From an uncultured Spirochaetota bacterium (lineage in GTDB: Bacteria > Spirochaetota > Spirochaetia > JAFGXN01), in the NCBI GenBank assembly GCA_944388995.1, contig CALXKN010000008.1:17160-81159 (forward strand): a stretch of 64,000 nucleotides of DNA. Direction: 5' to 3'. Below, piece by piece: positions 9,762 to 64,000 of the stretch (positions within the stretch are counted from its first letter, which is position 1; each line of letters starts with the position of its first letter). The translations under genes were made by a program, and so were the position numbers. The notes beneath the pieces were generated by a model, which was not told where the DNA came from, did no database searches, and saw only the letters and a program-made list of their open reading frames with translations.

Positions 9762-10583
9762 TCAATTCACTTTTTCGGCTAAAACGGTTCGTTCGCGTTC
9801 ACTCAAATCGGGTTCTTCACCGGCCAGCAGCGCTTTGACCGCTTTTTTCTCTTTTTCCGACAATTTTACGCTTTTCAAAACGTGGTTACGGAACGCTTCG
9901 CATGCATATGGGCATACTTTTTCAGCAATCATCAGCAGAACTTCGGCATAACTTCGAATTTCTTTTTGCGCATGACCGTCGAGCCGCAATTTTAGAAAGT
10001 GAAACAGATTATGCAAATCGATTTGCCAATACCATTCCGTGTATAAACTGAGCGGCAGGTTGATTCGCGACAGTTCACGTGCAATGTTTTCGCCGATCAA
10101 CTTTTCGTAAGAATCGTAAGCGGCAGTTTGCTGATCAATTAAATTTTGCAGAACCGCTTCCCGAAGCACGGCAGGAACTTCTTCCTCCGAACGCCCTTGT
10201 TTATTATTCTGACTTTGAAACGCAATATCTTCGGCGGCCGGAACGTAAAACTCATTACGCATAACAGAATAACGGCCGGAAATTTCGTTCAGCCGCGCTG
10301 TTCGGTGACGAATCCATTGACGAGCAACAAAAATCGGCAGTTTGACGTGAAATGTGAAAACCACCTGTTCGAACGGAGAAGTGTGTTCGTTTCGCAGTAA
10401 ATAATTGATAAGCCCCTGATCTTCCCGAACTGTTTTCGTTCCGTCGCCGTAGGAAACGCGTGCCGACTGCACAATCCGCGAATCGCTTCCCATATAATCG
10501 ACCAAGCGAACAAATCCTTTATCCAAAACGGGAAACGCTTTGTCCAATACGGCTTCCGCTTCCGGAACGACACAATGCGCCAT
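9762..10583 (-). CDS. thyX: FAD-dependent thymidylate synthase
   Basis: ThyX motif RHRTARLNEISGRYS (RHRx7S). Length 273 aa. Confidence 0.85.
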   Translation of the reverse strand: MAHCVVPEAEAVLDKAFPVLDKGFVRLVDYMGSDSRIVQSARVSYGDGTKTVREDQGLINYLLRNEHTSPFEQVVFTFHVKLPIFVARQWIRHRTARLNEISGRYSVMRNEFYVPAAEDIAFQSQNNKQGRSEEEVPAVLREAVLQNLIDQQTAAYDSYEKLIGENIARELSRINLPLSLYTEWYWQIDLHNLFHFLKLRLDGHAQKEIRSYAEVLLMIAEKVCPYACEAFRNHVLKSVKLSEKEKKAVKALLAGEEPDLSERERTVLAEKVN

Positions 10584-10636
10584 AATCTTACCTCAATTTC
10601 GATTATAATATATTGAACGAAATTTGTCACGTCTTT

Positions 10637-11974
10637 TTAAAAAACAACCGAAACCGCCGGCGCTTCCGGCAAAGGCAGAGCGGCGGCTGGGTTTTCCGCC
10701 GCGCCGTTTTTTTGGACAATGACAACGGAACCGTCGGGCGCGTTTCCGTTGTCCGTATCGTAAGTCGAAAAATTGTACCGGTACAGATAATCCTGCATGG
10801 TGCGGCCGTCGGCGTAAGTATAAACGGCCTTTTCAGGATTTTTCAGTTCGCCGTCATAATAGGAAACGTCGTAGGCGTAGACAAATGTGCCGTCCGCACT
10901 GTAATACTCGCCGCGGACAATGGCAGATCCGTTGACGGCAAAAGTGTAGTAAAAAGTGATTTCTCCGGAGGAAGAGTAGTGGTTTTCCTTAATGGACCGC
11001 GGTGAGCCGCCGCTGTAATTGTAAATCCGTTCCTTTGAAAGAACAAAATACTGCGTCAGAAACTCATTGTCGGACAAACCGGCGCCGGTTTCGTTTTCCG
11101 TTCCCGGACGGCGGGTAAAGTATTCGATCCGTTCGATTTTACCGCTGCGGATGACGCGCCGCTCCGTTCCCTCCCACCGCGTGCGGTCGGGTTCGGTTTG
11201 GTTAAAATCTTTCGAATAATACTGATTGATGTTCAGATAGCGAACCTCCGAATCGGCATTCGCTGTTTCTTCTGTTACTGAGTAATAAAAATGGGCGCGG
11301 TAATGCGACGGCTGTGCTTTCGGATCGGTGTAAATTCCTTCATATCTCAAAAGTCCGTCGCTGTCGTAACCGTAAACGATTGTTTCGATATGCCGCTCTT
11401 CGGAGACGCCCGAAACGGAGGTGTAAAGATAATACGTATCTTCTTTTTTGTACAATCCGTCGTTGGTGTAACTGTAAACCGAATAATTTGAATCATCCGC
11501 CCAGCCTGCTTTGATTTGCTTCAGTTTTTGTGTGAACGTTGTCGGCCGCGACCATGTGACGAAGCGATTGCCGGTCGATTCATTGGAGACGGAAGCGCGC
11601 ACAAAATACGTTCCGGCACCTAAGCGATCCAAATACTGTGAATTGTAGGCAATAAACCAGCCGCCGTTTTGCGTAAAGGTTTCTGTCGTAATCAATCGAG
11701 AGGCGGAAAAAACGCCTTGATAGTTGTCGATATGATATGAAAAATCTTCGTTTTTAGAGAATTCCAGATAATAAACTGAATCGGAAATTGAAGTCCAAAC
11801 GAGGGCAGGATAGTAACACTCCCCGTAATCGGTTTTCGAAAAGACAACCGCATTGGTTCCGATCTCAACAGGAAAACCGACGTAATTTCCGCTTTTCGGA
11901 TCAACGGGATTTTCGAATGCAAAACAGGAAAAAAGAAAAAAAACCGACAATAAGACTAAAATTTTCTTTTTCAC
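10637..11974 (-). CDS. Tyr-rich lipoprotein, function unknown
   Basis: Signal peptide plus lipobox (LFSC). 445 aa. Overlaps the next gene by 4 nt. Confidence 0.5.
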   Translation of the reverse strand: MKKKILVLLSVFFLFSCFAFENPVDPKSGNYVGFPVEIGTNAVVFSKTDYGECYYPALVWTSISDSVYYLEFSKNEDFSYHIDNYQGVFSASRLITTETFTQNGGWFIAYNSQYLDRLGAGTYFVRASVSNESTGNRFVTWSRPTTFTQKLKQIKAGWADDSNYSVYSYTNDGLYKKEDTYYLYTSVSGVSEERHIETIVYGYDSDGLLRYEGIYTDPKAQPSHYRAHFYYSVTEETANADSEVRYLNINQYYSKDFNQTEPDRTRWEGTERRVIRSGKIERIEYFTRRPGTENETGAGLSDNEFLTQYFVLSKERIYNYSGGSPRSIKENHYSSSGEITFYYTFAVNGSAIVRGEYYSADGTFVYAYDVSYYDGELKNPEKAVYTYADGRTMQDYLYRYNFSTYDTDNGNAPDGSVVIVQKNGAAENPAAALPLPEAPAVSVVF

Positions 11975-12579
11975 AGACTGTTCCTGTTTAAATAAGTCTG
12001 GCGATATTTTTCTTCAGCTGCATTGATAAATGCCGTCTTTTGAGGTCGGTCTCCGGAAAACAGAACCGCCGCCGCAATCAAAAAACCGCCGGCCGCTGCA
12101 GTGCAAACTCCGGCAGGAACCAGACAAGCAACCGTTTCTTTGCGTGCCTGAACGGCAATCGATGTTTCGACAGCGGCTGTGTAGCGGCTGTACGGAACGA
12201 GCGCACCGCCGAACAAGGCGGCGCCCGCAGCCGCCAGCCCGGCGCCGCTGCCGAGAAACTGAAACGCCAACCGATCACGTTTGCGTCTTGTTTCCAGACG
12301 ACCGATTTTTCCATCGGTTTTTTCGCTCTCTTTTGAAACAATCCGCCTCGATACGTCGAAAAATCGGGCAACAGTCGCCGGTGATTCTTCGGCGATCATC
12401 CGGTCAAAGGCGGCCGTCAGCGTTTGAAATTCATGCAGCAGATCTTCGTCTAAAGGCAGCGGATTCGCCAAAGAGGCTTCGGCTTTTATCAAAAAAAGTT
12501 CCGTCCGGCTGCCGTCAATTCTCTGAGCCGCCGCCGAAAGAGCCGTAAAAAGAAAAACCGTTACAATAAAATTTTTCAT
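11971..12579 (-). CDS. Hypothetical secreted/membrane protein
   Basis: The likely start is the internal Met (MKNFIVTVFLFTALSAAAQ signal peptide). The longer ORF-track start at 12693 overlaps the upstream gene. Confidence 0.4.
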   Translation of the reverse strand: MKNFIVTVFLFTALSAAAQRIDGSRTELFLIKAEASLANPLPLDEDLLHEFQTLTAAFDRMIAEESPATVARFFDVSRRIVSKESEKTDGKIGRLETRRKRDRLAFQFLGSGAGLAAAGAALFGGALVPYSRYTAAVETSIAVQARKETVACLVPAGVCTAAAGGFLIAAAVLFSGDRPQKTAFINAAEEKYRQTYLNRNSL

Positions 12580-12643
12580 GCCGCAAAAAAAAGCATCAAC
12601 CGTTATTTTAAACCGATTGATGCTTTTGTCACTGATTTTTATC

Positions 12644-13891
12644 TTATTCGGCAACCGTTTCCGCAGCTGTCTCTTCTCCCGTTCCGGCATCATCGGTTTC
12701 GGTTTCCATCACCGAATCGTCGATTCCGTCATCAACAACGGGGGAATCTTCCGGAGGCAGAACAATCTCTTCCTCTTCCAAAATGATTTCTTCTTCGGCC
12801 GCAAGACGGTCGGCTTCATTGTAAACCACGTCGGCCGCGGCAATTTTCTCGTTGAACTGACGGACAGCTTCCTGATTCAGCTGAAAGCCGGTTTCGATTT
12901 CGGCAAACGCCCGGATTTGATCCAACTCAATCGTGTGTTCGGGAATCATCGAATAAACGTAAAAAACAATATAAGCGTTATAATCACTGTAATCGTACAC
13001 AGCGCTGACGCCGCCGTTCGGAACATCTTTCAATAAATCATCCACGTCTTTTGTGTTCTCGGTGATATAAACAAATCCACGGTTGGCTTTGTAGTCTTTT
13101 CTATCAAAATACGGATTGTCTTTCATGTATTTGGCTGCGGTCTTCATAAAGGCTTTTTCGGAATCGATTTTTGCAATATCCGCTTCCAGTTCTTTGAGAA
13201 GTTTTTCCGCAGCCGTCTCTTCGACAACCTCTTCGACGGTTTCCTCAACGCCTTCCACAATTCCGACCGTTTCTTCCGTTCCGTCGGCATTTTCTTCCGT
13301 AATTTCGCCTTCAATGACCTCTTCCGTTACTTCTTCCTCAACCGGTTTTGTAACAAACAGCTGACTGACATAATAACATTTCGGAACTGTGAAAAAATCT
13401 TCTTTTCTTTCGTCGTACCAACTCCGAACCTGATCTTCCGTCGGTTTTTGGTAAGTGTCGGCATAAATGGTTTCAATCAGTTTGTTCTGTAAAAGCGCAT
13501 CGGCCGTCATCTGACGGACTTCTTCCTTTGTTTTTCTTTCATAATAAGGAAACAACTCTTCGGCAATTTCCAGCGTCGGATAACGGCGGGCGCTTAAAAC
13601 AAAGTAATTGTAAATTTGATCGATTTCTTCATCTTCCAACTGAATCTGATACTCTTGCTGTAATTGCTCTACAACTGTTTCCCGAATAAACTGAGATTCA
13701 ACCATGCTTTTGGCCTGTTCTTCAATTCCCGGAAACCTCTCTTCTTCAGGCGGCAGAATATCTTCTACGGCTTTATTGAATTCGCTGACCGTAATGACTT
13801 TTCCGTTAACGGTCATATACGGACGGTTTCCGCAAGCGGCAACAGTCAAAATAAAAATTACGGACAAAGCCGCAAATAAAGATCTTTTCAT
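12644..13891 (-). CDS. Lipoprotein with SurA/PrsA-like N-terminal chaperone region and long acidic low-complexity linker
   Basis: Lipobox (LTVAAC), a 'TVNGKVITVSEF' SurA-N-like segment, and an E/T/V-rich acidic tract. Confidence 0.45.
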   Translation of the reverse strand: MKRSLFAALSVIFILTVAACGNRPYMTVNGKVITVSEFNKAVEDILPPEEERFPGIEEQAKSMVESQFIRETVVEQLQQEYQIQLEDEEIDQIYNYFVLSARRYPTLEIAEELFPYYERKTKEEVRQMTADALLQNKLIETIYADTYQKPTEDQVRSWYDERKEDFFTVPKCYYVSQLFVTKPVEEEVTEEVIEGEITEENADGTEETVGIVEGVEETVEEVVEETAAEKLLKELEADIAKIDSEKAFMKTAAKYMKDNPYFDRKDYKANRGFVYITENTKDVDDLLKDVPNGGVSAVYDYSDYNAYIVFYVYSMIPEHTIELDQIRAFAEIETGFQLNQEAVRQFNEKIAAADVVYNEADRLAAEEEIILEEEEIVLPPEDSPVVDDGIDDSVMETETDDAGTGEETAAETVAE

Positions 13892-55218: not shown

Positions 55219-55254
55219 GCCGCCATAGTAAAAGAAAGCCGCCGTCCTGTCAAC

Positions 55255-55421
55255 CTTTTCGTTTTTTGGGCGCGCGCCCCTGCGGGGCGCCGGGCTTTCC
55301 GCTGCAATTCGCAGCCTCCCTGCGCCTTCACCGCGGCAAAGCTGCCGCTTTGCCCTGCGCCTTCTCTCCGTCGGCAGCTCATTTCCGCTTCAATCCCTCG
55401 CGCCTTCGGCAAGGTGCTGCG
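55255..55421. repeat. GC-rich 166-bp direct repeat, copy 1
   Basis: Near-identical (1 indel) to 56426-56591. About 70% GC with internal hairpins (ggcaaagc-tgcc-gctttgcc; gggcgcgcgcccc…ggggcgcc). Confidence 0.9.
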
Positions 55422-55515
55422 GAAATCGGCATTTTATTGTTTTAGTGTAAAAATGGGAACTTCCGAAAACAGTCAACCGTTTTTCGGAAAAATAACTGCC
55501 CTAAACGTATTTTTG

Positions 55516-55616: not shown

Positions 55617-55922
55617 TTGGAGCGATCGGGTATGAGCTGTAATCTTCCTGAAAGCGTGGTTTTCGATATTGAACGATTCGCAAAGAAAAACAAGATTAAA
55701 AAGGTCGTTCTGTTTGGCTCCCGCGCGAGGGGCAATCATTCGGAACGAAGCGACATTGATTTGGCGGTCAGCGGTGGAAACGCGGCGGATTTTTATTACG
55801 ACGTCAATGAAGAAGCGCGGACTCTTTTAATTTTTGATGTGGTCAATCTGGACGGACCGGTCAGCGGCGAACTGCGCGCCGAAATAGAAAAGGACGGAGT
55901 TTTACTCTATGAAGAAATTTGA
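55617..55922 (+). CDS. Minimal nucleotidyltransferase (MNT) antitoxin-type protein
   Basis: GSRARG…SDIDL motif (Pol-beta NTase fold). Confidence 0.8.
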   Translation: MERSGMSCNLPESVVFDIERFAKKNKIKKVVLFGSRARGNHSERSDIDLAVSGGNAADFYYDVNEEARTLLIFDVVNLDGPVSGELRAEIEKDGVLLYEEI

Positions 55923-56304
55923 CAATTTTTGCAAAGCGCTTTCGAATTTGCGGGAAGGATTGCAGCTTGAAGAACCGTATTCTGTCGTCGAACGGACGGG
56001 CATCATCGGGCTGTTTGAAATTTGCTTTGAGCAGGCATGGAAGCTGATGAAAGCGGTTTTGGAAGAGCACGGCAGGACAATCGACCGCGTCGGTTCCCCG
56101 AAAGTTGTCATTCAGCTTGCATATCAGAGCGGGATGATTGACGACAGCGAAAAATGGCTTTCCCTGCTCAGAGATCGAAATATCCTTGCTCACACCTACA
56201 GCGACGAAGATTCGCTTGCCGTGATTCGAACGTTAAAGACGGACTACGAGCCCTTGTTCGCCACCCTCAAAGAAGAGATTGAAACGCGCCGGCTTTCGGC
56301 GTAA
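55909..56304 (+). CDS. HEPN-domain toxin-type protein (HI0074/nucleotidyltransferase-substrate-binding family)
   Basis: Rx4-6H motif (RDRNILAHTY). Overlaps the MNT gene by 14 nt. Confidence 0.75.
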   Translation: MKKFDNFCKALSNLREGLQLEEPYSVVERTGIIGLFEICFEQAWKLMKAVLEEHGRTIDRVGSPKVVIQLAYQSGMIDDSEKWLSLLRDRNILAHTYSDEDSLAVIRTLKTDYEPLFATLKEEIETRRLSA

Positions 56305-56425
56305 AGCGGAGGCGCGAAACAACTGAGTCCGGTATGAAAGTAGAAGAAATGGGAGCGAAAACTCTTTCAATCGCCACTGATTCTGCCAGCATCTTTACAT
56401 TTGGCTCCGCCCCCCCTCGCTGAAT

Positions 56426-56591
56426 CTTTTCGTTTTTTGGGCGCGCGCCCCTGCGGGGCGCCGGGCTTTCCGCTGCAATTCGCAGCCTCCCGCGCCTTCA
56501 CCGCGGCAAAGCTGCCGCTTTGCCCTGCGCCTTCTCTCCGTCGGCAGCTCATTTCCGCTTCAATCCCTCGCGCCTTCGGCAAGGTGCTGCG
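56426..56591. repeat. GC-rich 166-bp direct repeat, copy 2
   Basis: See copy 1. Preceded by a C7 tract (56410-56416). Confidence 0.9.
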
Positions 56592-56655
56592 AAAGAGGCG
56601 TCTGAAAACTATAAATATGAGAACAATCTCATTTAAACCTCATCCATTTTTATCT

Positions 56656-59541
56656 TCAGCAGAAATGCGCCATATCGCGCGGATAATACTTGCAGTCGTG
56701 CAGTTCCGTGTCGTCAAGCCCCAGCGCCTTTACCAGGGCAGCAGACGCTATGCACCAGTACCCGCGGTACTGGTTCTTTTTCAAGTCAAATTTTGTTATA
56801 AGCCCATCAGTCTTCGTGTGAATCCACTGTCTTTTAAGATACCGTTTTAACCGCTCAACAGCCGCCGCTTTATTCTCTTTTGAAAGCAGTACCACCTCAT
56901 ATACCGCATTGGAATATTTCGGACAGCAGAGCTTTTCCGTGCGTATCTGCCAGGATGAGTCCAGCGTCTGCATAAGGAAATCCAGATAAAAATCCCGCTG
57001 TTCCGATTTTTGTAACAATTTTCGATAGTCATCCAGAAATTCAGTCCTGTTAAAAAGCATAATCAAGTACAGAACAGTTTCCATATCTTCATAATTATCA
57101 TTGCCGTCCTGTGCGTCTATCAAATGACGCAAAATCAGGTCTACTTCGGGAAGCAGCTCATGCATATCTAGCCCTAAGGAATATCCTGTATAAAATTTGT
57201 AAAATGCATAAGTATATATTTGATATTTAAACGCTCTTATGTCCGATTCTGCCTGATGTTCATCAGTCTCAATATTATGATGATGATACGTTTGCAGTAT
57301 TTCTTTCAGCTTTTGGGAATCTTTCTTGAATCTTTCGTCAAAATATTCCTGGGGTTTGACTTTATCCCTCATCATTCTTACCCGGGGCGGAAGTTTTTCC
57401 CGCTCCTCCTCCGTAAGAAATTGCGACAGTTCAACTAAAAAGGGCTCTATAAACTCCGACATGAGTTTCGCTTTATTCCCGGCTGAGTGATCATAAGGTA
57501 TTTCAATTGCCGATGTCCGCCGTTTCTCATCCTTCCACAAGCGTCCTATTTTAATAAATGAACCGCCTTTCTCAAATATGTACAACGATATAATCAGTGT
57601 GCAGTCTTCATACTCACATTCTATATAATCTTGCTCCCCCAAGCAGTAATCTCTGTAGGTAAGATTCCTCAAAGTGGTTATTATCCAGGGTATCCACTCT
57701 TTTTTGATGACAACACTATCCCATGACTGCCATGACCCGGTACCGAAACGGCTGCCGGTTCTGGTGTTGATTCGTAGTTCGCCTTTGGGACTCCAGGGCG
57801 TGGGAAGTTTTTTCCGTTCTTCTTCAGGAAGAAATTGTGACAAGGCCACTAAGAAGGGTTCTATAAATTCCGACATGATTTTCAAGTCGTTGTCCGATTC
57901 TTCAAAATTAAATTCGAAACGGGTATAACGCCACTTTGATGTCAGGGTATAACTCTGCTCATTTTTTGCATGCCAAGGAAAATAAGGTATTTCAAGTGCC
58001 GGCGATATCTTCTTTTCATCCTTCCACATGGGAAATATTTTTATATAGGAATACCCATCCCCTATAGGACAGATACTTAATGTTAATTGGCACGTTCCCC
58101 ATTTATTTATGATGCTTTCAACTCCTGTTTGATAATTATCAACACTAAGATTTCTCAATGTGCTTATTATCCAGGGTATCCGGTTTTTTTGTATAACAAT
58201 ACTTTTCTGCTGCCCGCCGCCGAATGTACCGGTTCTTTTTCCGTTAATCCGTAATTCATCGTTATCTAATTCCTCGAAGCTGTATTCAAAATCGGCATTC
58301 AGAGTTTTTTTGCTTTGATATTTTGTTATCTTCTCTATTTTGGCTACTATCGATTCGTCGTCCGACTTATCGGTTTCGCCTGCATACCAATCTTTGCCTT
58401 CGAGCCATACCCCGAACCAGAAAGGAAGATCCCCCCAAGGTCTTTGACAGAGTTCTTTCTTTTCGTTGACACTCCAGGGGGGCGACAGTTTACCCCTTTC
58501 TTCTTCCGTGAGAAACTGCGACAATGCAACCAGAAACGGCTCTATAAATTCCGACATTAATTTTGTTTCTTTCCGGGATACATAGGGTATTTCAATATTC
58601 CATGAACTCTTATTTTCATTTTTCCAGACAGGATAAATTTTGATATAGGAATAATCAAAGGGTACTACATTTATAATAAAACTTAAATTACAGTAACCGT
58701 ATTCATATACGAGAGTTTGCGGGGTGTTATAATCGTCGATAGTGGCATTTCTTAGTGTGGTAATGATCAAAGGTATCCACGCTTTTTTTATGATAATACT
58801 TTCCCATTGTCCCCTGCCGAATGAATCTGTTCGCTTTGCATTGATTTCCAACTCGTCATCATTTAATTCTTCATTGTCAGCTTTTTCCTCAAAATAAAAT
58901 TCGAAATGAACATTCCCGCCCTTACTGATCAGGTATTCTTTTTCTGCCAGTCCGTATTGTGTTATACCGGTCATTGCTTTGAAAAAATTGAGGGAACCGC
59001 TTTCCTTATCGGCAAAAATGATGTTCTGTTTTTTGTTTTCCCTCCAGGGAGGCGGAAGTTGTGTTCTTTCTTCTTCGGTAAGGAATTGTGCCAATTCAAC
59101 CAAAACAGGTTCGATAAATTCCGCCATTAACCTGCTTTTATCCCAGGGTAGATATGGTATTTCAATAAACGGTGTCGTTTTTTCCTTCGGTTCCTTCCAT
59201 ATGGGCATTATTTGAAGGGTCGCATAATCTTTGGCAGATGGTAAAAACTCCAGATTGACTTGACATTCTTCATATTCGTGAACGATATGTCTGTTCCAAA
59301 TCCCTTCCGGAAAGTTGATGTCGTAATCCTCAAAAGGAAGGGTTCTCAGTGTGGTGATAATCCGGGAAATCCACGCTTTTTTTATGACGATACAGTAATA
59401 CAAAGGCATACGTTCCGCTTCATCCAACAATGGAAAGGTTATTTTTTCGAAAATCCGTATTTCGTCGTTGTCCGATTCCTCAAAATGAAATTCAAAGGTA
59501 TCGGATATTTCGGCATCTCCCCTTCTGCCTGTAATGAACAT
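56656..59541 (-). CDS. Novel 961-aa protein: four tandem ~180-aa repeats plus C-terminal ~210-aa domain (paralogue of the next gene)
   Basis: Repeat hallmarks FEFxFEESDNDELRI…KRTxxFGxGxWxSxxIKKxWIPxIITTLRN…YIKIxPxWKxE…IEIPY…SEFIEPFLVxLSQFLTEEERxKLPPPW occur four times. The C-terminus is about 65% identical to the 59781-60401 product. Confidence 0.7.
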   Translation of the reverse strand: MFITGRRGDAEISDTFEFHFEESDNDEIRIFEKITFPLLDEAERMPLYYCIVIKKAWISRIITTLRTLPFEDYDINFPEGIWNRHIVHEYEECQVNLEFLPSAKDYATLQIMPIWKEPKEKTTPFIEIPYLPWDKSRLMAEFIEPVLVELAQFLTEEERTQLPPPWRENKKQNIIFADKESGSLNFFKAMTGITQYGLAEKEYLISKGGNVHFEFYFEEKADNEELNDDELEINAKRTDSFGRGQWESIIIKKAWIPLIITTLRNATIDDYNTPQTLVYEYGYCNLSFIINVVPFDYSYIKIYPVWKNENKSSWNIEIPYVSRKETKLMSEFIEPFLVALSQFLTEEERGKLSPPWSVNEKKELCQRPWGDLPFWFGVWLEGKDWYAGETDKSDDESIVAKIEKITKYQSKKTLNADFEYSFEELDNDELRINGKRTGTFGGGQQKSIVIQKNRIPWIISTLRNLSVDNYQTGVESIINKWGTCQLTLSICPIGDGYSYIKIFPMWKDEKKISPALEIPYFPWHAKNEQSYTLTSKWRYTRFEFNFEESDNDLKIMSEFIEPFLVALSQFLPEEERKKLPTPWSPKGELRINTRTGSRFGTGSWQSWDSVVIKKEWIPWIITTLRNLTYRDYCLGEQDYIECEYEDCTLIISLYIFEKGGSFIKIGRLWKDEKRRTSAIEIPYDHSAGNKAKLMSEFIEPFLVELSQFLTEEEREKLPPRVRMMRDKVKPQEYFDERFKKDSQKLKEILQTYHHHNIETDEHQAESDIRAFKYQIYTYAFYKFYTGYSLGLDMHELLPEVDLILRHLIDAQDGNDNYEDMETVLYLIMLFNRTEFLDDYRKLLQKSEQRDFYLDFLMQTLDSSWQIRTEKLCCPKYSNAVYEVVLLSKENKAAAVERLKRYLKRQWIHTKTDGLITKFDLKKNQYRGYWCIASAALVKALGLDDTELHDCKYYPRDMAHFC

Positions 59542-59780
59542 TGCATCTACCAGTTTAAGAAAAGCTTTTGTATCAGCGGATTGGGCAGATTCTTCATGTT
59601 GATCGTCTTCTTTATTATATTTTATTCCGACTCCTAAGGAACGCAGCCGTCATATCGAAGGGGTGCAACGGTATGACGGCCAACACTCCGCTTTCACGCG
59701 GTGGTCTTATGCTGTTCATGTCGATACCGGACCGCTTCCGACACAACCGAATGAAGTTTTCCGATTTTCCGAATCAATTT

Positions 59781-60401
59781 CTAACAGAAATGGGTCATAT
59801 CGTAGGGATAGTATTTACAGTCTTTCAGTTCCGTATCGTCAAGTTTGAGGGCTTTTACCAAAGCGGCGGCGGCGATGCACCAATACCCCCGGTACCACCC
59901 TATTTTCAGATCCCGGTTGGTTATAACACCTTCGGTTAATGACATAAACCACTGCCTTTTAAGATACCTCTTTAACCGCTGGACGGCTTCCGCCTTGTTT
60001 TCTTTTGACAGCATTACCACCTCGTATACCGAATTGGTCTCTTTGGGGCAACGAAGTTTTTCCGTACTTATCTGCCATGTGGAGTCTACTATCTGTACAA
60101 GATAATCCAGGTAAAAATCCCGCATTTTCGATTTTTGTAATAACTCCTTATATTCATCCAGAAATTCTGTCCGGTTAAAAAGAATGATTAAGTATATAAT
60201 CATTTCCATATCATCATAACCTCTGTCCCTTTCTCTCGTTGTATCAATCAAATTTCTTATGATAAGGTCTACTTCGGGAAGCAGCTCATTCATACCAAGC
60301 CCCAGGGAATAGCCTGCATAAAATTTACAAGCTGCTTCCATATATATGTGATATTTAAACGACCATACATTATATTTTTCCGGATGGCTTATTCTCTTCA
60401 T
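59781..60401 (-). CDS. Stand-alone 206-aa paralogue of the C-terminal domain of the 961-aa protein
   Basis: YxGYSLGLxMxELLPEVDLIxRxLID…CKYYPxDMxHFC is shared with the 961-aa protein. Confidence 0.7.
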   Translation of the reverse strand: MKRISHPEKYNVWSFKYHIYMEAACKFYAGYSLGLGMNELLPEVDLIIRNLIDTTRERDRGYDDMEMIIYLIILFNRTEFLDEYKELLQKSKMRDFYLDYLVQIVDSTWQISTEKLRCPKETNSVYEVVMLSKENKAEAVQRLKRYLKRQWFMSLTEGVITNRDLKIGWYRGYWCIAAAALVKALKLDDTELKDCKYYPYDMTHFC

Positions 60402-60643
60402 ATTTACTCATCCGTTCAGCAAGATCAGACGCATCCTTATTATATCTTTCCCTAAAATATTCTTCTGTTTTTATGGTGTCTCTCATCTGTTATTCCTTGT
60501 GTATTTTGTAAATTTTTGGTTTATTCTCGTTATACATAACATTGCCATTTTCATCAAGTTGGTAATATGTTACTTTTCCTCCCTTCGGAACGCCTGCGGC
60601 GTGGCTACAATCCTTTGTGCGAGAAGATTTTTATCAATGGTGT

Positions 60644-60700
60644 CCGTACACACCCATTGATGTTGTCAAAGAACTCCTTCTGTACGGAGATAGGGGGAGG
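60644..60700. repeat. 57-bp exact repeat with 7-bp inverted repeat (CCGTACA…TGTACGG), copy 1
   Basis: Identical to 63943-64000. Starts 2 nt after the stop of the 75-aa gene. Confidence 0.9.
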
Positions 60701-60701
60701 G

Positions 60702-60929
60702 TTATTCAAAAGTTATTACCATATGCGAACCTGCCGTTTTTTCGGTTACTTTCTGTATAATCTCTTTTTTGTCATCTTCAGTTAATGGCTCGTTTTCTGG
60801 AACAAGCCAATTTTTCATTGAACTTTTATAACAGACAAAACCGCCTACTATCATTTCGCCTGCGATTCTCGCAGTTCTGCCATCGAGTTCTACATCTATG
60901 TATGTGTTTGTTCCGGTTATTTTTGTCAT
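60702..60929 (-). CDS. 75-aa hypothetical protein (partner of DUF600-like gene in duplicated module)
   Basis: MTKITGTNTYIDVELDGRTARIAGEMIVGGFVCYK…. A truncated second copy lies at 62300-62353. Confidence 0.5.
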   Translation of the reverse strand: MTKITGTNTYIDVELDGRTARIAGEMIVGGFVCYKSSMKNWLVPENEPLTEDDKKEIIQKVTEKTAGSHMVITFE

Positions 60930-60938
60930 ATATTAATC

Positions 60939-61271
60939 CTATGCATTATCCCATTCGTCTTGAAGAGCCTGATCCCATTCAAAGGTCATATCAAAGTGAC
61001 CGTTCTTTTCAAGGGTGTAAATAGCTTTGTTCCATTGTGCAAAATGTAACTCTTTTGCACTATTATGAAATTTTATTAAATCAATTTTTGTTTCTCGATT
61101 AAGTGCTAAGTTTAAAGCATTTTTCCATTCTCCATTAATCTGATATTTTGCATTCGTACCAATATATTTATCACTACATTCAATATTCAGTTCAATTTTA
61201 TCCCAAGAGGAATCAATACTATCATTCAATTGCGAACCAATATTTTTATATATATCTTCAATATTTTTCAT
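60939..61271 (-). CDS. DUF600 (YezG/EsaG)-like putative immunity protein, copy D
   Basis: N-terminus IEDIYKNI…SSWDKIEL and C-terminus WNKAIYTLEKNGHFDMTFEWD fit the DUF600 pattern (…EWEKVYLY…, W.NL.L..ER.G.F.IDYDY). AGGAG RBS overlaps the upstream nuclease-fragment stop. Confidence 0.5.
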   Translation of the reverse strand: MKNIEDIYKNIGSQLNDSIDSSWDKIELNIECSDKYIGTNAKYQINGEWKNALNLALNRETKIDLIKFHNSAKELHFAQWNKAIYTLEKNGHFDMTFEWDQALQDEWDNA

Positions 61272-61282
61272 AAATACTCCTA

Positions 61283-61657
61283 TTAATTTAAGAAGAACAA
61301 ATTTTCTGTTTTTTCTATTTTTCCATCCGATGTTTTTATAATGTATGTTACATCAAAATCTGTCGGTCTTAGATTATCAGCATAGTTTATTTTTATATCA
61401 ACTTCAACCTTTTTTCCCTCTGAAAGTGCATCGTTCCATTTTTTTTCCATGGTTTTCCATTCACCATTATTTAGTGTGGCGGTTTGTGGAACATAATTTA
61501 TTTGTTCTCCAGGACCATTGAAAATTCTTGCAATAATATGTCCGCCCTGGTCATCACCTTTAATACCATCTTTTATATCAACTGATTTTCCTTGTTGATA
61601 AACATTTCTGTCTTTTGTTTCAAGTTTTAATTCTCCGCTTACTTTGTTTTACAACTA
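61283..61657 (-). pseudogene. Orphan/pseudogenised nuclease toxin C-terminal domain (Serratia NucA-like bba-Me / Endonuclease_NS_2, EsaD/YeeF-type)
   Basis: Minus-strand frame encodes …GDDQGGHIIARIFNGPGEQINYVPQTATLNNGEWKTMEKKW… (compare Serratia DRGHQ…NITPQKSDLNQGAW). It has no start codon and in-frame TAG (61655-61657) and TAA (61649-61651). An upstream fragment (…DADYEDIVAALNRFGTIASKRK) in the same frame extends to 61731. Confidence 0.6.
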
Positions 61658-61731
61658 TTTTCTTTTACTTGCAATTGTTCCAAAACGATTAAGTGCAGCA
61701 ACAATATCTTCATAATCAGCATCTATTTCAT

Positions 61732-62262
61732 CTAACTGTCCCAGATTTCCTTAAATTTTAAACCTTTGATACTGTTTTTCTTAACAATATCTATAAACTC
61801 ATCTGTTACAAAATAATCTCGAATAATTAATTGATTTTGTAGTTTAACTTGAAAAAGAGGTGGATAATTGTTTTCCTTAAAATAATATTGCTCAACACCT
61901 AAAATATCATTCTCAAAATACTTATATTTAGTTTTTTTTCGATCTAAGCAGTCCAAAACAGTTAAATTATTTAATAGTACAAAATCGTCATTAAGCGGAA
62001 CAAATCTTATATTTATTTGAGAAATGTCAGAAAGTACTGCCATAAATTTTTTATTTATGAAGAATCCTCTACAATCATAACATTCACAAATATCCCCTGC
62101 AGGATTATTAGAATCTCTATCGTATTCTAATTGAAAATCAGAAGGAATGCTTATTTCTATACCTTTATTAAACTGACGTAAAATTTTTCTATCAGTTTCT
62201 TCGTTTTTTATATAGCATCCTTTGTAATTATCAATATCTGTTTCTAAAATGTATATTTTCAT
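61732..62262 (-). CDS. 176-aa hypothetical protein (AT-rich, possible immunity-type protein)
   Basis: ORF with a G8 tract serving as its RBS. No known motif. Confidence 0.45.
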   Translation of the reverse strand: MKIYILETDIDNYKGCYIKNEETDRKILRQFNKGIEISIPSDFQLEYDRDSNNPAGDICECYDCRGFFINKKFMAVLSDISQINIRFVPLNDDFVLLNNLTVLDCLDRKKTKYKYFENDILGVEQYYFKENNYPPLFQVKLQNQLIIRDYFVTDEFIDIVKKNSIKGLKFKEIWDS

Positions 62263-62299
62263 ATATCCCCCCCCTAATTGTGAATTTTTAAGAAACCAC

Positions 62300-62353
62300 T
62301 CAATAATTCCTTTCGGATTGTTTGTATGTGTTTGTTCCGGTTATTTTTGTCAT
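62300..62353 (-). pseudogene. Truncated remnant of 75-aa-family gene (MTKITGTNTY then divergent, stop after 17 codons)
   Basis: The first 10 codons and 5' flank are near-identical to the 60702-60929 gene, then homology breaks. Confidence 0.6.
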
Positions 62354-62362
62354 ATATTAATC

Positions 62363-62686
62363 CTATGCATTATCCCATTCGTCTTGGAGAGTTTGATCCC
62401 ATTCAAATGTCATATCAAAATGACCATTCCTTTCAAGAGAGTAAACAGCTTTGTTCCATTTATGCTCAGGCGACATAGATTCTTGAAGTTCAAAAACGCT
62501 ATCCATTAAAGTATTTACAGTTAATAAAGGAAACTTTAATTCTTTTTTTTCAAACGATGATAAAGTATATTCTGCCTGAAATGAACACATTTTATTTAGA
62601 CTTGATTCTATTTTTACAGTCACTTTTTCCCATTTACCGGAAATATTATCTTGAACCGCCTTGCCTAATTCTTTATATAAATCCAT
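62363..62686 (-). CDS. DUF600 (YezG/EsaG)-like putative immunity protein, copy B
   Basis: C-terminus WNKAVYSLERNGHFDMTFEWDQTLQDEWDNA is near-identical to copy D. Confidence 0.5.
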   Translation of the reverse strand: MDLYKELGKAVQDNISGKWEKVTVKIESSLNKMCSFQAEYTLSSFEKKELKFPLLTVNTLMDSVFELQESMSPEHKWNKAVYSLERNGHFDMTFEWDQTLQDEWDNA

Positions 62687-62732
62687 AGCATCTCCATTAA
62701 TTGTTGAATATTTTTTTGAATAGTTGGCTCAT

Positions 62733-63842
62733 TTATTTCTCTTTATTTAAAATAAACAGATACTCAGAGACGTGTATATTACGGTTATTCAAATTTCTGC
62801 TTCCCCGGAATGTATTATAAGTCATTTCAACGGTTTTCAGTTTTCCGTAGTGTTCCAGCATTGTTTTCATTTGCTCAAAAGTAATAAATCCTTCAGAATT
62901 ATAAGAGATAATGACAAACTTTGAATCAATTTTATCTATGATTTTTTCCATGGATTTTAAGGCTGAATAAGGTTTGTTGAATTCCGAGCGGTTCCAATCC
63001 TGAGTTATCCCTGAAACTTTACTGATTTCAGCATCCAGCCTGTTCTTTATGATAAGATTCAGCATAAAATAATTTGAACCATAGGGATGCTGGTTATACG
63101 GGGGATCCAGATAAGTAATATCTATTTTTTTTAATTCCCCGGCAAGTTCCACAGCATCTTTTTTATAGATTTTAACCTTTGAATTGAAATTGCTTAAAAC
63201 CGGCTCTTTCAGTTCTATTTTTCCAAAAATGCGGGTTAAAGCGTTTTTCCCGGCAGCGCCGAAACATCCGATTCCGGTATTTTTGTCCTTGTAAAACCCT
63301 TTGAAAACCCCGCTTGTATTGACATGAACCGAAGCCTCCGTTACGAGCGGCGCTAAAAAAAATTTTTTCATGTCTTCTTCCTGCACCACTTTATCAATCA
63401 GACTGCGGTAAGTGTCGATTAACAGAGCGTTCTCATGGGTATAAAAAACCCTTTCTCCTCTTTGAATATTTCCGTCATCCTGAGGGGCATAATTTTTTGT
63501 GATAATTCTCGGTTCTTTTTTGCTGCGGCACATTTCTTCTATTATTGATTTATATTCCCGCCATTTTTCATGCGGAAAATCTTTTTTGTCAGTCAGATAG
63601 CATTCATTGATGAGGCGGGAATATTCTTCCAGATCATTGGCAATTAAAACACTGCTGTATTTTTTCAGCATCCGGGCAACAATTCCCGAACCGGAGAAAA
63701 TATCCGCACAAACAAGTTTTTCTTTTCCCAATAAACCGGCAATTTTTTTGACTTCTTCTTCTATATTCCTGATAAGCTGCCGTTTGTTCCTGATATAAGT
63801 AATGATCTGTGCAGTAAGATATTCTTTATTTTCTTCTTTCAT
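62733..63842 (-). CDS. DNA N6-adenine methyltransferase, D12 class (Dam-like, alpha type)
   Basis: Motif I DIFSGSG and motif IV DPPY in alpha-class order. 369 aa. Confidence 0.7.
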   Translation of the reverse strand: MKEENKEYLTAQIITYIRNKRQLIRNIEEEVKKIAGLLGKEKLVCADIFSGSGIVARMLKKYSSVLIANDLEEYSRLINECYLTDKKDFPHEKWREYKSIIEEMCRSKKEPRIITKNYAPQDDGNIQRGERVFYTHENALLIDTYRSLIDKVVQEEDMKKFFLAPLVTEASVHVNTSGVFKGFYKDKNTGIGCFGAAGKNALTRIFGKIELKEPVLSNFNSKVKIYKKDAVELAGELKKIDITYLDPPYNQHPYGSNYFMLNLIIKNRLDAEISKVSGITQDWNRSEFNKPYSALKSMEKIIDKIDSKFVIISYNSEGFITFEQMKTMLEHYGKLKTVEMTYNTFRGSRNLNNRNIHVSEYLFILNKEK

Positions 63843-63942
63843 GGCTGTAAAGATTTATATTGTTCCAAATTTCCGGTTTATTCTATGCTTTTTGACAGAC
63901 CTTTATACTCAGTATCCCTCTCCGCAAAAATCAACCCGGATT

Positions 63943-64000
63943 TCCGTACACACCCATTGATGTTGTCAAAGAACTCCTTCTGTACGGAGATAGGGGGAGG
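63943..64000. repeat. 57-bp exact repeat, copy 2 (runs into window end)
   Basis: Identical to 60644-60700. Confidence 0.9.

Follow-up and report, generated by a model that had tools for sequence, protein, structure and literature searches.

A probable acquired polyimmunity island in a gut Treponema

A row of toxin and immunity gene cassettes occupies positions 56656 to 64000 of a 64,000-nucleotide stretch of DNA (hereafter the window) from an uncultured Spirochaetota bacterium (contig CALXKN010000008.1). The row is probably an acquired heterogeneous polyimmunity island, carried by a Treponema of the gut that is of the Candidatus Treponema excrementipullorum type, and would serve as a shield rather than as a weapon of its own. 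In nucleotide alignments, its low-GC cassettes are near-identical copies (92–99% at the DNA level) of modules that are intact in genomes of approximately 30% GC, at least one of which belongs firmly to Mucispirillum. The toxin parts of the Treponema island are start-less, truncated or chimeric, and most of its immunity open reading frames (ORFs) are intact, the exceptions being one truncated Imm74 gene and a frameshifted stand-alone PoNi gene. All of the intact-toxin contexts inspected (4/4) have a GC content of 0.29–0.31. Because intact cassette toxins are found only in such contigs, where they are linked to an injection system, the row is better read as an acquired polyimmunity island than as the tail of a resident toxin gene. 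An earlier note on this DNA had recognised polymorphic toxin and immunity cassettes, and its general reading and family assignments are retained here; its placement of any full-length toxin beyond 64000 is not supported.

Horizontal transfer from Mucispirillum-type bacteria would have built the island, with caecal mucus as a likely setting common to Treponema and the donors. The immunity proteins would then protect Treponema from injected nucleases, each by binding its cognate toxin as in the EsaG–EsaD and PoNi–PoNe pairs. Passages of a study of the chicken caecum describe Treponema-like species and Mucispirillum as both enriched on the caecal mucosa, and mucosa-associated bacteria as expressing a type VI secretion system (T6SS; PMC13040750); M. 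schaedleri is described as carrying a T6SS. The passages covered on the caecal mucosa (PMC13040750) and on the M. schaedleri T6SS contain no mention of a system of the eCIS (extracellular contractile injection system) type.

Low-GC cassettes of the island

Every credible gene from 63842 down to 56656 lies on the minus strand, as the earlier note had stated, and its description of the 60.9–63.9 kb part as AT-rich is borne out by a GC content of 0.28–0.30 at 61.0–63.0 kb versus 0.45 for window positions 1–53000. The cassettes at 60.9–62.7 kb range from 0.25 to 0.32, compared with 0.45 in the Treponema core and 0.29–0.31 in the donor-type contigs. By gene, GC content is 0.25 in a 176-aa gene, 0.29 in a 110-aa YezG-like gene (YezG110), 0.31 in a nuclease fragment, 0.315 in a 107-aa YezG-like gene (YezG107), 0.36 in the Imm74 and methyltransferase genes, and 0.40–0.41 in the PoNi and 961-aa genes.

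The nuclease fragment (61283–61649) is the C-terminal part of an EsaD-like Endonuclea_NS_2 domain (PF13930, 4e-22; profile positions 52–130 of 132). It has stop codons upstream and no usable start, its internal ATG yields 55 aa only, and the window thus holds no complete Endonuclea_NS_2 domain in an ORF with a start. Homology to the intact nuclease begins at 61649 (...NKVSGELKLE...), and the fragment shares 96–97% nucleotide identity with the 3′ part of an intact 214-aa gene in contigs L094 and L095; this intact relative matches S. aureus EssD (3e-15). YezG110 (60939–61271) follows 11 nt downstream, in the cognate position for the nuclease, so that the start-less fragment stands 5′ of a DUF600-like gene just as the earlier note had described. 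In L094, L095 and L111, a YezG-like gene is likewise encoded directly behind the intact 194/214-aa nuclease, and the YezG110 protein of the window is 99% identical to its counterpart behind the intact nuclease of L094.

Both YezG-like genes, the second being YezG107 (62363–62686), belong to the EsaG/YezG immunity type. The PF04634 (DUF600) score of YezG107 is 23.4 bits, above the curated cut-off of 21.7, and that of YezG110 is 20.8 bits, slightly under it; among aligned relatives, 32 of 33 match PF04634 at E≤0.01. A fold search places the YezG-like proteins in the EsaG fold, sequence searches of the PDB gave no match for the YezG profile or the 176-aa protein, and NCBIfam gives weak TIGR01741 (staph_tand_hypo) matches only. 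Each YezG-like gene lies 9 nt ahead of a 75-aa gene, the second of which is truncated, an arrangement that the earlier note had seen and to which the family name Imm74 can now be given. The intact Imm74 gene (60702–60929) matches PF15603 at 1.3e-15 (57.6 bits against a cut-off of 27.1), and the exact protein is named in NCBI as an Imm74 family immunity protein of Candidatus Treponema excrementipullorum. The truncated copy (62300–62353) begins MTKITGTNTY, then diverges and stops after 17 codons.

Between the two YezG–Imm74 pairs lies the 176-aa gene (61732–62262), a relative of the immunity gene of AHH toxins: its product is 45% identical (1e-52) to the 180-aa product encoded downstream of an intact AHH toxin in L103. 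An orphan coding fragment, LDEIDADYEDIVAALNRFGTIASKRK (61658–61735, ending in a stop codon), had been proposed as the segment preceding the toxic domain. It is in frame with the nuclease fragment but is separated from it by two stop codons, and neither the intact toxin genes nor any toxin locus compared contains a sequence that matches it. The proposed pre-toxin peptide DADYEDIVAALNRFGTIASKRK has no match outside this island. In these comparisons, the peptide ahead of the nuclease fragment is unrelated to the native toxin.

Every cassette row, in the window as well as in L094, L095, L103 and L111, ends with Imm74. The usual partner toxin of Imm74 is Tox-ARC (Zhang et al., 2012; PMC3482391), and no Tox-ARC toxin was seen in any locus inspected. 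Imm74 may act chiefly as a conserved arm for recombination on the 3′ side; alternatively, its target may be a different one.

Donor-type loci and their injection system

The assignment of a donor-type locus to Mucispirillum rests on flanking genes. Contig L094 (137 kb) is 99% identical on both flanks to a Mucispirillum metagenome-assembled genome (MAG; L007), and its positions 9814–12953 form a 3.1-kb insertion where L007 (9799–9884) has 85 bp. The insertion comprises, in order, an Endonuclea_NS_2 nuclease gene (EndoNS2, 214 aa), YezG110, a YezG::AHH chimera, a 180-aa gene, Imm74 and a Mor-family gene. In L001, the flank containing a Na/alanine symporter gene shares 98.6% identity with this same MAG, which bears the label uncultured Mucispirillum sp.; nine other contigs labelled Mucispirillum match the symporter query, and the neighbouring genes are common to all five that were checked. 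The Mucispirillum island is a clean indel polymorphism between the Na/alanine symporter gene and a CheW/CheZ gene, and the Mor-family regulator gene at its end overlaps Imm74.

A second arrangement is found in L095 and L111 (107 kb, GC 0.31), where the locus adjoins an mraZ-rsmH-PBP cluster and reads EndoNS2, YezG110, a 380-aa SUKH protein, a 70-aa ORF, a chimera of a repeat unit with a nuclease tail, YezG107, Imm74 and Mor. Nucleotide identity to the window is 97.2% for L094 (60931–61649), 96.1% for L095 (60684–61649) and 91.7% for L111 (62323–62733, including YezG107). The module of AHH chimera, 180-aa gene and Imm74 that lies upstream in L001 shares 99.07% nucleotide identity with that of L094.

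Intact EndoNS2 (282–316 aa) and AHH (312–324 aa) toxins share a common N-terminal region (...PNVSKITTIDPDTMAETVIFERKAGTVYVKPNETLIKNGAWD...) and have different toxic ends, which is a hallmark of polymorphic toxins. In L102–L106 (GC 0.29–0.30), the gene order is a large protein, eCIS_core (PF13699), a 442/481-aa toxin, PoNi, a 324-aa AHH toxin, the 180-aa gene and Imm74. Genes for a phage sheath, a T4 gp19-type tube, CIS_tube, an AAA ATPase and a Phage_base_V spike lie upstream of the AHH toxin cargo. From this predicted gene content, the system behind the donor-type toxins is a contractile injection system of the eCIS/PVC (Photorhabdus virulence cassette) type. A contractile injection system locus in L107–L109 (GC 0.29) comprises sheath, gp19 tube, CIS_tube, AAA ATPase, spike, DUF2997, a pentapeptide protein, a 1129-aa protein and eCIS_core, and it also holds a small radical-SAM-like gene and FHA/VWA genes. 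The host of L107–L109 appears to be a vertebrate-gut bacterium.

PoNi genes and the 961-aa protein

The remaining immunity genes of the island have a higher GC content and are of the PoNi type. The last 30 codons and stop of a PoNe-like toxin gene (60490–60582; GGKVTYYQLDENGNVMYNENKPKIYKIHKE) precede a frameshifted PoNi gene (59781–60487), which consists of a 38-aa N-terminal part (60371–60487) and a 206-aa ORF (59781–60401; PoNi_C 72.5 bits, 6e-20). The intact 235-aa PoNi gene is present in most cluster members and in L122. The toxin tail is 52% identical to the tail of a 481-aa toxin (...GKLTYYKLDTYGKVMFDNITNSPIIYNINKE) that precedes PoNi in L102, L104 and L105. The 442/481-aa toxins, which precede PoNi in L102–L105, have no Pfam nuclease match, and a D...ExK-like motif is seen by eye only.

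Next to the PoNi gene, the 961-aa ORF consists of an N-terminal part of 722 aa with four internally repeated, Pur-alpha-like units (57376–59541) and a C-terminal PoNi domain (56656–57375; PoNi_C 64.9 bits, 1.4e-17; PoNi_N 22.7 bits, 1e-4, cut-off 22.4). Its current annotation is 'DUF1911 domain-containing protein' only. The giant repetitive protein of the earlier note is thus upheld, but its supposed single-domain paralogue, the 206-aa gene, is paralogous to the C-terminal PoNi domain and not to the repeats. The units lie at about 59032–59517, 58456–58929, 57949–58314 (plus a displaced helix) and 57376–57792, and none of the four, each of approximately 150 aa, has a Pfam match at E≤1. Their resemblance to Pur-alpha/Whirly proteins is at the level of fold only, with 12% identity (PDB 3k44; Borrelia Pur-alpha, 3n8b).

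The unit has a narrow distribution. A word-based search recovered 23 clusters only, all of them close relatives, and a full profile search against 1.84 billion representatives recovered 43 proteins only. PoNi is present in every cluster with a complete C-terminus, full-length proteins have two to four units, and long ORFs are kept across variants that are 66–99% identical. Stand-alone units of 150–195 aa also exist. In four contigs, which include a sediment metagenome and an NCBI MAG (GC 0.47), a unit encoded on its own overlaps the stop codon of an 801-aa gene behind an eCIS_core gene, which is the slot held by PoNi in the donor-type loci. In L118 (GC 0.31), three tandem stand-alone units lie behind a 134-aa ORF that is possibly a toxin C-terminus, and in a JGI contig a stand-alone unit adjoins an intact 235-aa PoNi gene. 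The 801-aa protein, like the SUKH-tail ORF and the 70-aa ORF of the cassettes, has no Pfam match. The 134-aa ORF of L118 (799–1203) has a faint match to Ntox44 (E 0.047) over almost the whole profile length; no immunity partner of Ntox44 is listed by Zhang et al. (2012; PMC3482391).

By association, the Pur-like unit is probably an uncatalogued immunity domain. Because this domain occupies the position of an immunity gene elsewhere, the 961-aa protein is probably a polyimmunity protein with four predicted Pur-alpha-like domains and PoNi. It would act as a polyvalent immunity protein, combining four immunity domains of the Pur-alpha fold with a PoNi domain. Another Treponema contig has a 751-aa homologue on its own, at a different locus. 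The 961-aa gene is thus accessory in the Treponema lineage, and it was next to this gene that the low-GC cassettes gathered.

Two further features of this protein were observed. Its homologues have 987–988 aa and start 26–27 codons further upstream (MKDKEDDQ... or MKYNKEDDQ...); window positions 59542–59619 match the MKYNKEDDQ... form (P0320), with ATA in place of the start codon, so the ORF opens at the next Met. Where repeats 3 and 4 meet, at residues of about 531–589 (window about 57775–57950), the order is permuted, such that the first strand of unit 4 (RFEFNFEESDND) precedes the last helix of unit 3 (IMSEFIEP...PW). This order is kept in all homologues inspected, and its conservation suggests that adjacent Pur-like units exchange a strand or a helix.

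An orphan methyltransferase

A 369-aa N6-adenine DNA methyltransferase gene lies at 62733–63842. It is of the D12 class (PF02086, 9e-18, with a DPPY motif), which agrees with the Dam-like assignment made earlier and specifies it as the D12/Dam-class N6-adenine type. The region 62723–63905 is 90% identical in nucleotide sequence to Treponema contigs L100 and L101, which also carry genes of the pallilysin and TP_0752 families. At L100 9937–11836 the system is intact, with the methyltransferase gene followed by a gene for an EcoRI-family restriction enzyme, their stop and start codons overlapping. Of the restriction gene, the window retains no more than the first 10 nt (62723–62732; ATGAGCCAAC), where the L100 homology ends; at 62733 homology switches from the L100 type to the low-GC YezG107 cassette of L111. 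By these alignments, the methyltransferase is the orphan of an EcoRI-type restriction-modification system, an antidote without its poison, and as such it would act against an EcoRI-type restriction enzyme.

Repeats and joints

An exact 58-bp repeat, recorded earlier as 57 bp and correctly placed after genes of the 75-aa family, occurs at 63943–64000 (copy A, at the window edge) and at 60643–60700 (copy B). These are the only two copies in the window, none being expected by chance, and copy A directly follows another Imm74 gene in L001 and L002. The first 20 bp of the repeat equal the Imm74/Mor junction of the low-GC loci L094 and L095, followed by TCCGTACA-N30-TGTACGGA. Both Treponema copies depart from the Imm74/Mor junction at the same base and share the next 38 bp. 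A second repeat, of 138 bp and 93% identity (62323–62460 and 60899–61036), comprises the 3′ end of YezG and the 5′ start of Imm74. The cassettes were reshuffled by recombination at short stretches of shared sequence, namely the YezG 3′ end with the Imm74 5′ start and the Imm74 3′ flank. The island is thereby a mosaic to which at least two donor-type loci and a single restriction-modification system of Treponema have contributed pieces.

Integrons occur in Treponema, and an attC reading of the 58-bp repeat was considered. On inspection the repeat lacks RYYYAAC/GTTRRRY core sites, its hairpin is no stabler than those of shuffled sequences (z −0.7), and no integrase was seen in the available flanks; the reading was rejected. 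A scan of JGI metagenomes returned 0 matches to the repeat.

Chimeric genes record other joints. In one type, half of a Pur-like unit runs, at WKDE|VDIQIIY, into the final ~39 residues of an Endonuclea_NS_2 toxin (L002 666–965, L005 544–855 and L111 10413–10718; P0080–P0086, P0093 and P0094). Its presence in several diverged variants and in low-GC genomes indicates that this chimera is old and persistent and not a one-off accident. Two proteins are recombination scars of other kinds: P0074 has the N-terminus of a serine recombinase (resolvase) fused to a nuclease fragment, and P0455 is a fusion of a 176/180-aa family C-terminus with a Pur-like unit.

Host linkage and continuation of the island

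Four independent assemblies from two projects (L087–L090; 212, 55, 61 and 7 kb) match the window at 46.6–62.4 kb with 99.7–99.99% identity and join the Treponema core (peptide-binding protein SBP, CorA and ParB) through the 961-aa gene and PoNi. L087–L089 run on into the low-GC cassettes, and L090 ends inside the 58-bp repeat; the four contigs stop at 62409, 62377, 60893 and 60652, each within an island repeat. Shorter contigs bridge 59537–64000. Relatives of the 961-aa protein with at least 90% identity are named in NCBI as Candidatus Treponema excrementipullorum or Spirochaetia bacterium.

No toxin gene with a delivery domain was found within the window, as the earlier note had said. Its expectation that a full-length toxin lies beyond 64000 did not hold in the two kinds of continuation that could be read from overlapping short contigs at 99.9% identity. 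In L002, L005 and L006, the continuation consists of Imm74, the 180-aa gene and a 142-aa YezG::AHH chimera (first 48 residues YezG-like, last 94 residues AHH nuclease, with the AHH motif lost), and further upstream of a chimera of half a repeat unit of the 961-aa family with an Endonuclea_NS_2 tail (last 39 residues), the 70-aa ORF and a SUKH gene tail. In L001, the module of Imm74, 180-aa gene and chimera is followed by an intact 212-aa Endonuclea_NS_2 gene and then by housekeeping genes of Mucispirillum, namely the Na/alanine symporter, an ABC transporter and LysE. Neither continuation has an LXG, RHS or other trafficking domain, and no full-length toxin with a trafficking or other N-terminal domain heads the array in the window, L001, L002, L005 or L006.

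Beside the island, on the plus strand, a nucleotidyltransferase/HEPN toxin-antitoxin pair of the MNT-HepT type (55617–55922 and 55909–56304) lies between two direct repeats of 173 bp (55252–55424 and 56423–56594; 98–99% identical). L090, from another sample, has a single copy of the repeat and lacks the gene pair, which is therefore a presence/absence polymorphism; in L114, from another strain, two different small ORFs take its place. No RNA family was found at E≤0.1 in the 55–64 kb region.

Weighing of the explanations

Several observations weigh against an island acquired from Mucispirillum-type bacteria. No recombinase or mobile-element gene lies within 10 kb on the core side, the far end being unassembled, and promoter and terminator scans of the island gave counts no higher than shuffled sequence and were thus uninformative. 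YezG-like relatives of 45–67% identity are named from other Treponema, which suggests that such cassettes circulate more widely. The presumed direction of transfer rests on composition, and the likely Mucispirillum-type origin of L102–L109 is inferred solely from a GC content of ~0.29 and from toxin sequences common with the Mucispirillum locus. The match of the 176-aa protein to Pfam Imm11 (PF07791), the family reported as the partner of Tox-AHH (Zhang et al., 2012; PMC3482391), is 19.8 bits (5e-4) and thus under the cut-off of 22.1, and its two 180-aa relatives have no Imm11 match, although the place of a 180-aa relative behind the intact AHH toxin agrees with this family. The frameshifted PoNi gene and the truncated Imm74 gene indicate that part of the island is decaying. 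Lastly, at L001 5400–7600 the window's arrangement with the methyltransferase is continuous with the Mucispirillum flank and an intact nuclease gene. Either Mucispirillum holds this arrangement too, or L001 follows a chimeric assembly path: a 1.3-kb segment that is 99% identical in L094 and in the window-extending contigs could have provided one, and other contigs of the same project as L001 break at L001 6306–6388.

The cassettes could alternatively be neutral debris that came by horizontal transfer or hitch-hiking and is decaying with no protective role. The broken PoNi and Imm74 genes, the chimeric ORFs, the lost start codon of the 961-aa gene and a promoter signal not above background would all fit such decay. 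This explanation is nevertheless improbable, since the immunity ORFs are mostly intact and every toxin is broken, a bias that would be expected under selection for immunity. The same island also recurs at 99.7–99.99% identity in samples that come from two projects, most related strains have an unbroken PoNi gene, and the long ORFs of the 961-aa family persist through considerable divergence (66–99% identity).

At slightly longer odds still, the row could be the orphan-cassette tail of a polymorphic toxin system of Treponema itself, with the toxin or apparatus encoded elsewhere and the cassettes serving as a reservoir for switching of toxin tips. Start-less toxin C-termini followed by immunity genes are the classic layout of orphan modules, the far island end is unassembled, and YezG-like genes are present in other Treponema. 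Yet both continuations past 64000 hold further orphan or chimeric cassettes only, the toxin fragments lack the shared N-terminal homology arm by which intact toxins swap, the AHH remnant has lost its AHH motif, and the intact-toxin contexts inspected are, all four, at a GC content of 0.29–0.31.

A misjoining of Mucispirillum DNA to a Treponema contig via a shared repeat is very unlikely: both organisms do occur in the same sample series, L001 ties the same sequence to a Mucispirillum flank and all contigs break at island repeats, but the same junctions are present in three long Treponema contigs that differ in sample and assembler, the exact Imm74 protein occurs in NCBI MAGs labelled Treponema or Spirochaetia, and the Treponema copies differ by 1–8% from their relatives in the Mucispirillum loci and show rearrangements of a kind not produced by any assembler (truncation of a toxin, insertion of a Treponema-type methyltransferase gene, and a PoNe tail with PoNi at 0.40 GC).

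Comparison with known systems

Heterogeneous polyimmunity loci and polyimmunity proteins were described by Zhang, de Souza, Anantharaman, Iyer and Aravind (2012; PMC3482391). The island resembles those loci as a co-oriented, tight and strain-variable row of unrelated immunity families (YezG-like, Imm74, Imm11-like, PoNi and, in the extension, SUKH), and the 961-aa protein resembles those proteins in that several immunity domains are carried by one polypeptide. It differs in its spirochaete host, in a repeated domain that lies outside both that catalogue and Pfam, and in that no adjacent XerC/D-type recombinase was seen. In 2012, extended polyimmunity loci were reported only from proteobacteria, bacteroidetes, firmicutes and actinobacteria, and spirochaetes were reported to have many Imm families (PMC3482391). 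The earlier remark that this combination is undescribed for spirochaetes is roughly fair in this light; the DUF600 and nuclease relationships it had named are present, and the locus is neither conserved nor uniform in composition.

The closest functional parallel may be the acquired interbacterial defence (AID) and recombinase-associated rAID-1 clusters of gut Bacteroidales (Ross et al., 2019; bioRxiv 10.1101/471110), which likewise consist of clustered orphan immunity genes with a GC content below that of the host, are horizontally acquired, and match toxins of co-resident gut bacteria. As a foreign orphan immunity array of this kind, the island has 92–99% nucleotide identity to low-GC loci and a GC content of 0.25–0.32 versus 0.45; protection by it would be analogous to that by AID clusters. 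The transfer in this case would be between phyla, from a Deferribacterota-type donor to a Spirochaetota host, and the presumed weapon is a phage-tail-like system with eCIS_core genes instead of the Bacteroidales T6SS. The island also includes dead toxin fragments, and neither an integrative conjugative element nor a recombinase was found in the available flanks. For a mobile element or XerD-like recombinase, the 10 kb on the core side were negative and the other side is unassembled, so their absence is not conclusive.

Individual cassettes have their own precedents. Compared with the T7SS (type VII secretion system) pair EsaD(EssD)–EsaG of S. aureus, which has arrays of esaG (DUF600) paralogues (PMC9616950), the island has no LXG or T7SS context, its YezG-like proteins have ~110 aa versus ~160 aa for EsaG and are 16% identical to it, and the toxin of the window is a fragment. 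As in PoNe–PoNi DNase pairs (Jana et al., 2019; PMC6688995), PoNi_N and PoNi_C lie downstream of a toxin tail, and as in the PoNi capture by gut fungi (bioRxiv 10.1101/2020.10.15.341461), an orphan PoNi is present in an organism without the toxin. Unlike those pairs (PMC6688995), one PoNi domain of the island is fused behind four Pur-like units, and the donor-type toxin has an N-terminus of unknown type and lies beside eCIS_core genes with no T6SS marker.

The donor-type loci resemble PVC/eCIS cargo loci with DUF4157 (eCIS_core, 'PVC-metallopeptidase') in having a sheath, two tube proteins, an AAA ATPase, a spike and eCIS_core upstream of the toxins (Zhang et al., 2012; Geller et al., 2021, PMC8213781). 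Their toxins have adjacent immunity genes, which is unusual for PVC systems according to Zhang et al. (PMC3482391), and their host is apparently a vertebrate-gut bacterium, whereas eCIS are reported to be enriched in environmental microbes (PMC8213781). The Pur-like units differ from Pur-alpha/Whirly nucleic-acid-binding domains (PDB 3k44, 3n8b) in their 12% identity, the lack of a Pfam match and their immunity-gene positions.

Implications

Polyimmunity islands are a known kind of locus; what is new here is the spirochaete host, the near-identical sharing with a donor of a different phylum, and the candidate immunity domain. A bolder combination of claims is possible but on the whole doubtful. 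Under it, a gut Treponema would have taken over, with hardly any change, the immunity half of the weaponry of a Mucispirillum living alongside it, giving the first inter-phylum acquired defence island; an eCIS-type system would, on indirect evidence, be used by bacterium against bacterium in vertebrate gut mucus; and an immunity family of the Pur-alpha/Whirly fold, possibly directed against nucleases, would occur as single units, in tandem, and as a four-unit fusion with PoNi.

Orphan immunity islands shape the coexistence of strains in the human gut, and what is understood of them in detail concerns Bacteroidales and the T6SS almost exclusively. The island described here supplies concrete toxin-immunity pairs together with a candidate immunity domain that current annotation misses. 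If the reading as an acquired polyimmunity island is true, the idea of orphan immunity would also cover spirochaetes and inter-phylum transfer, Mucispirillum and Treponema would stand out as a specific pair of antagonists in the caecal mucus niche, and a phage-tail-like injection system of a gut commensal would seem to have bacteria as its targets.

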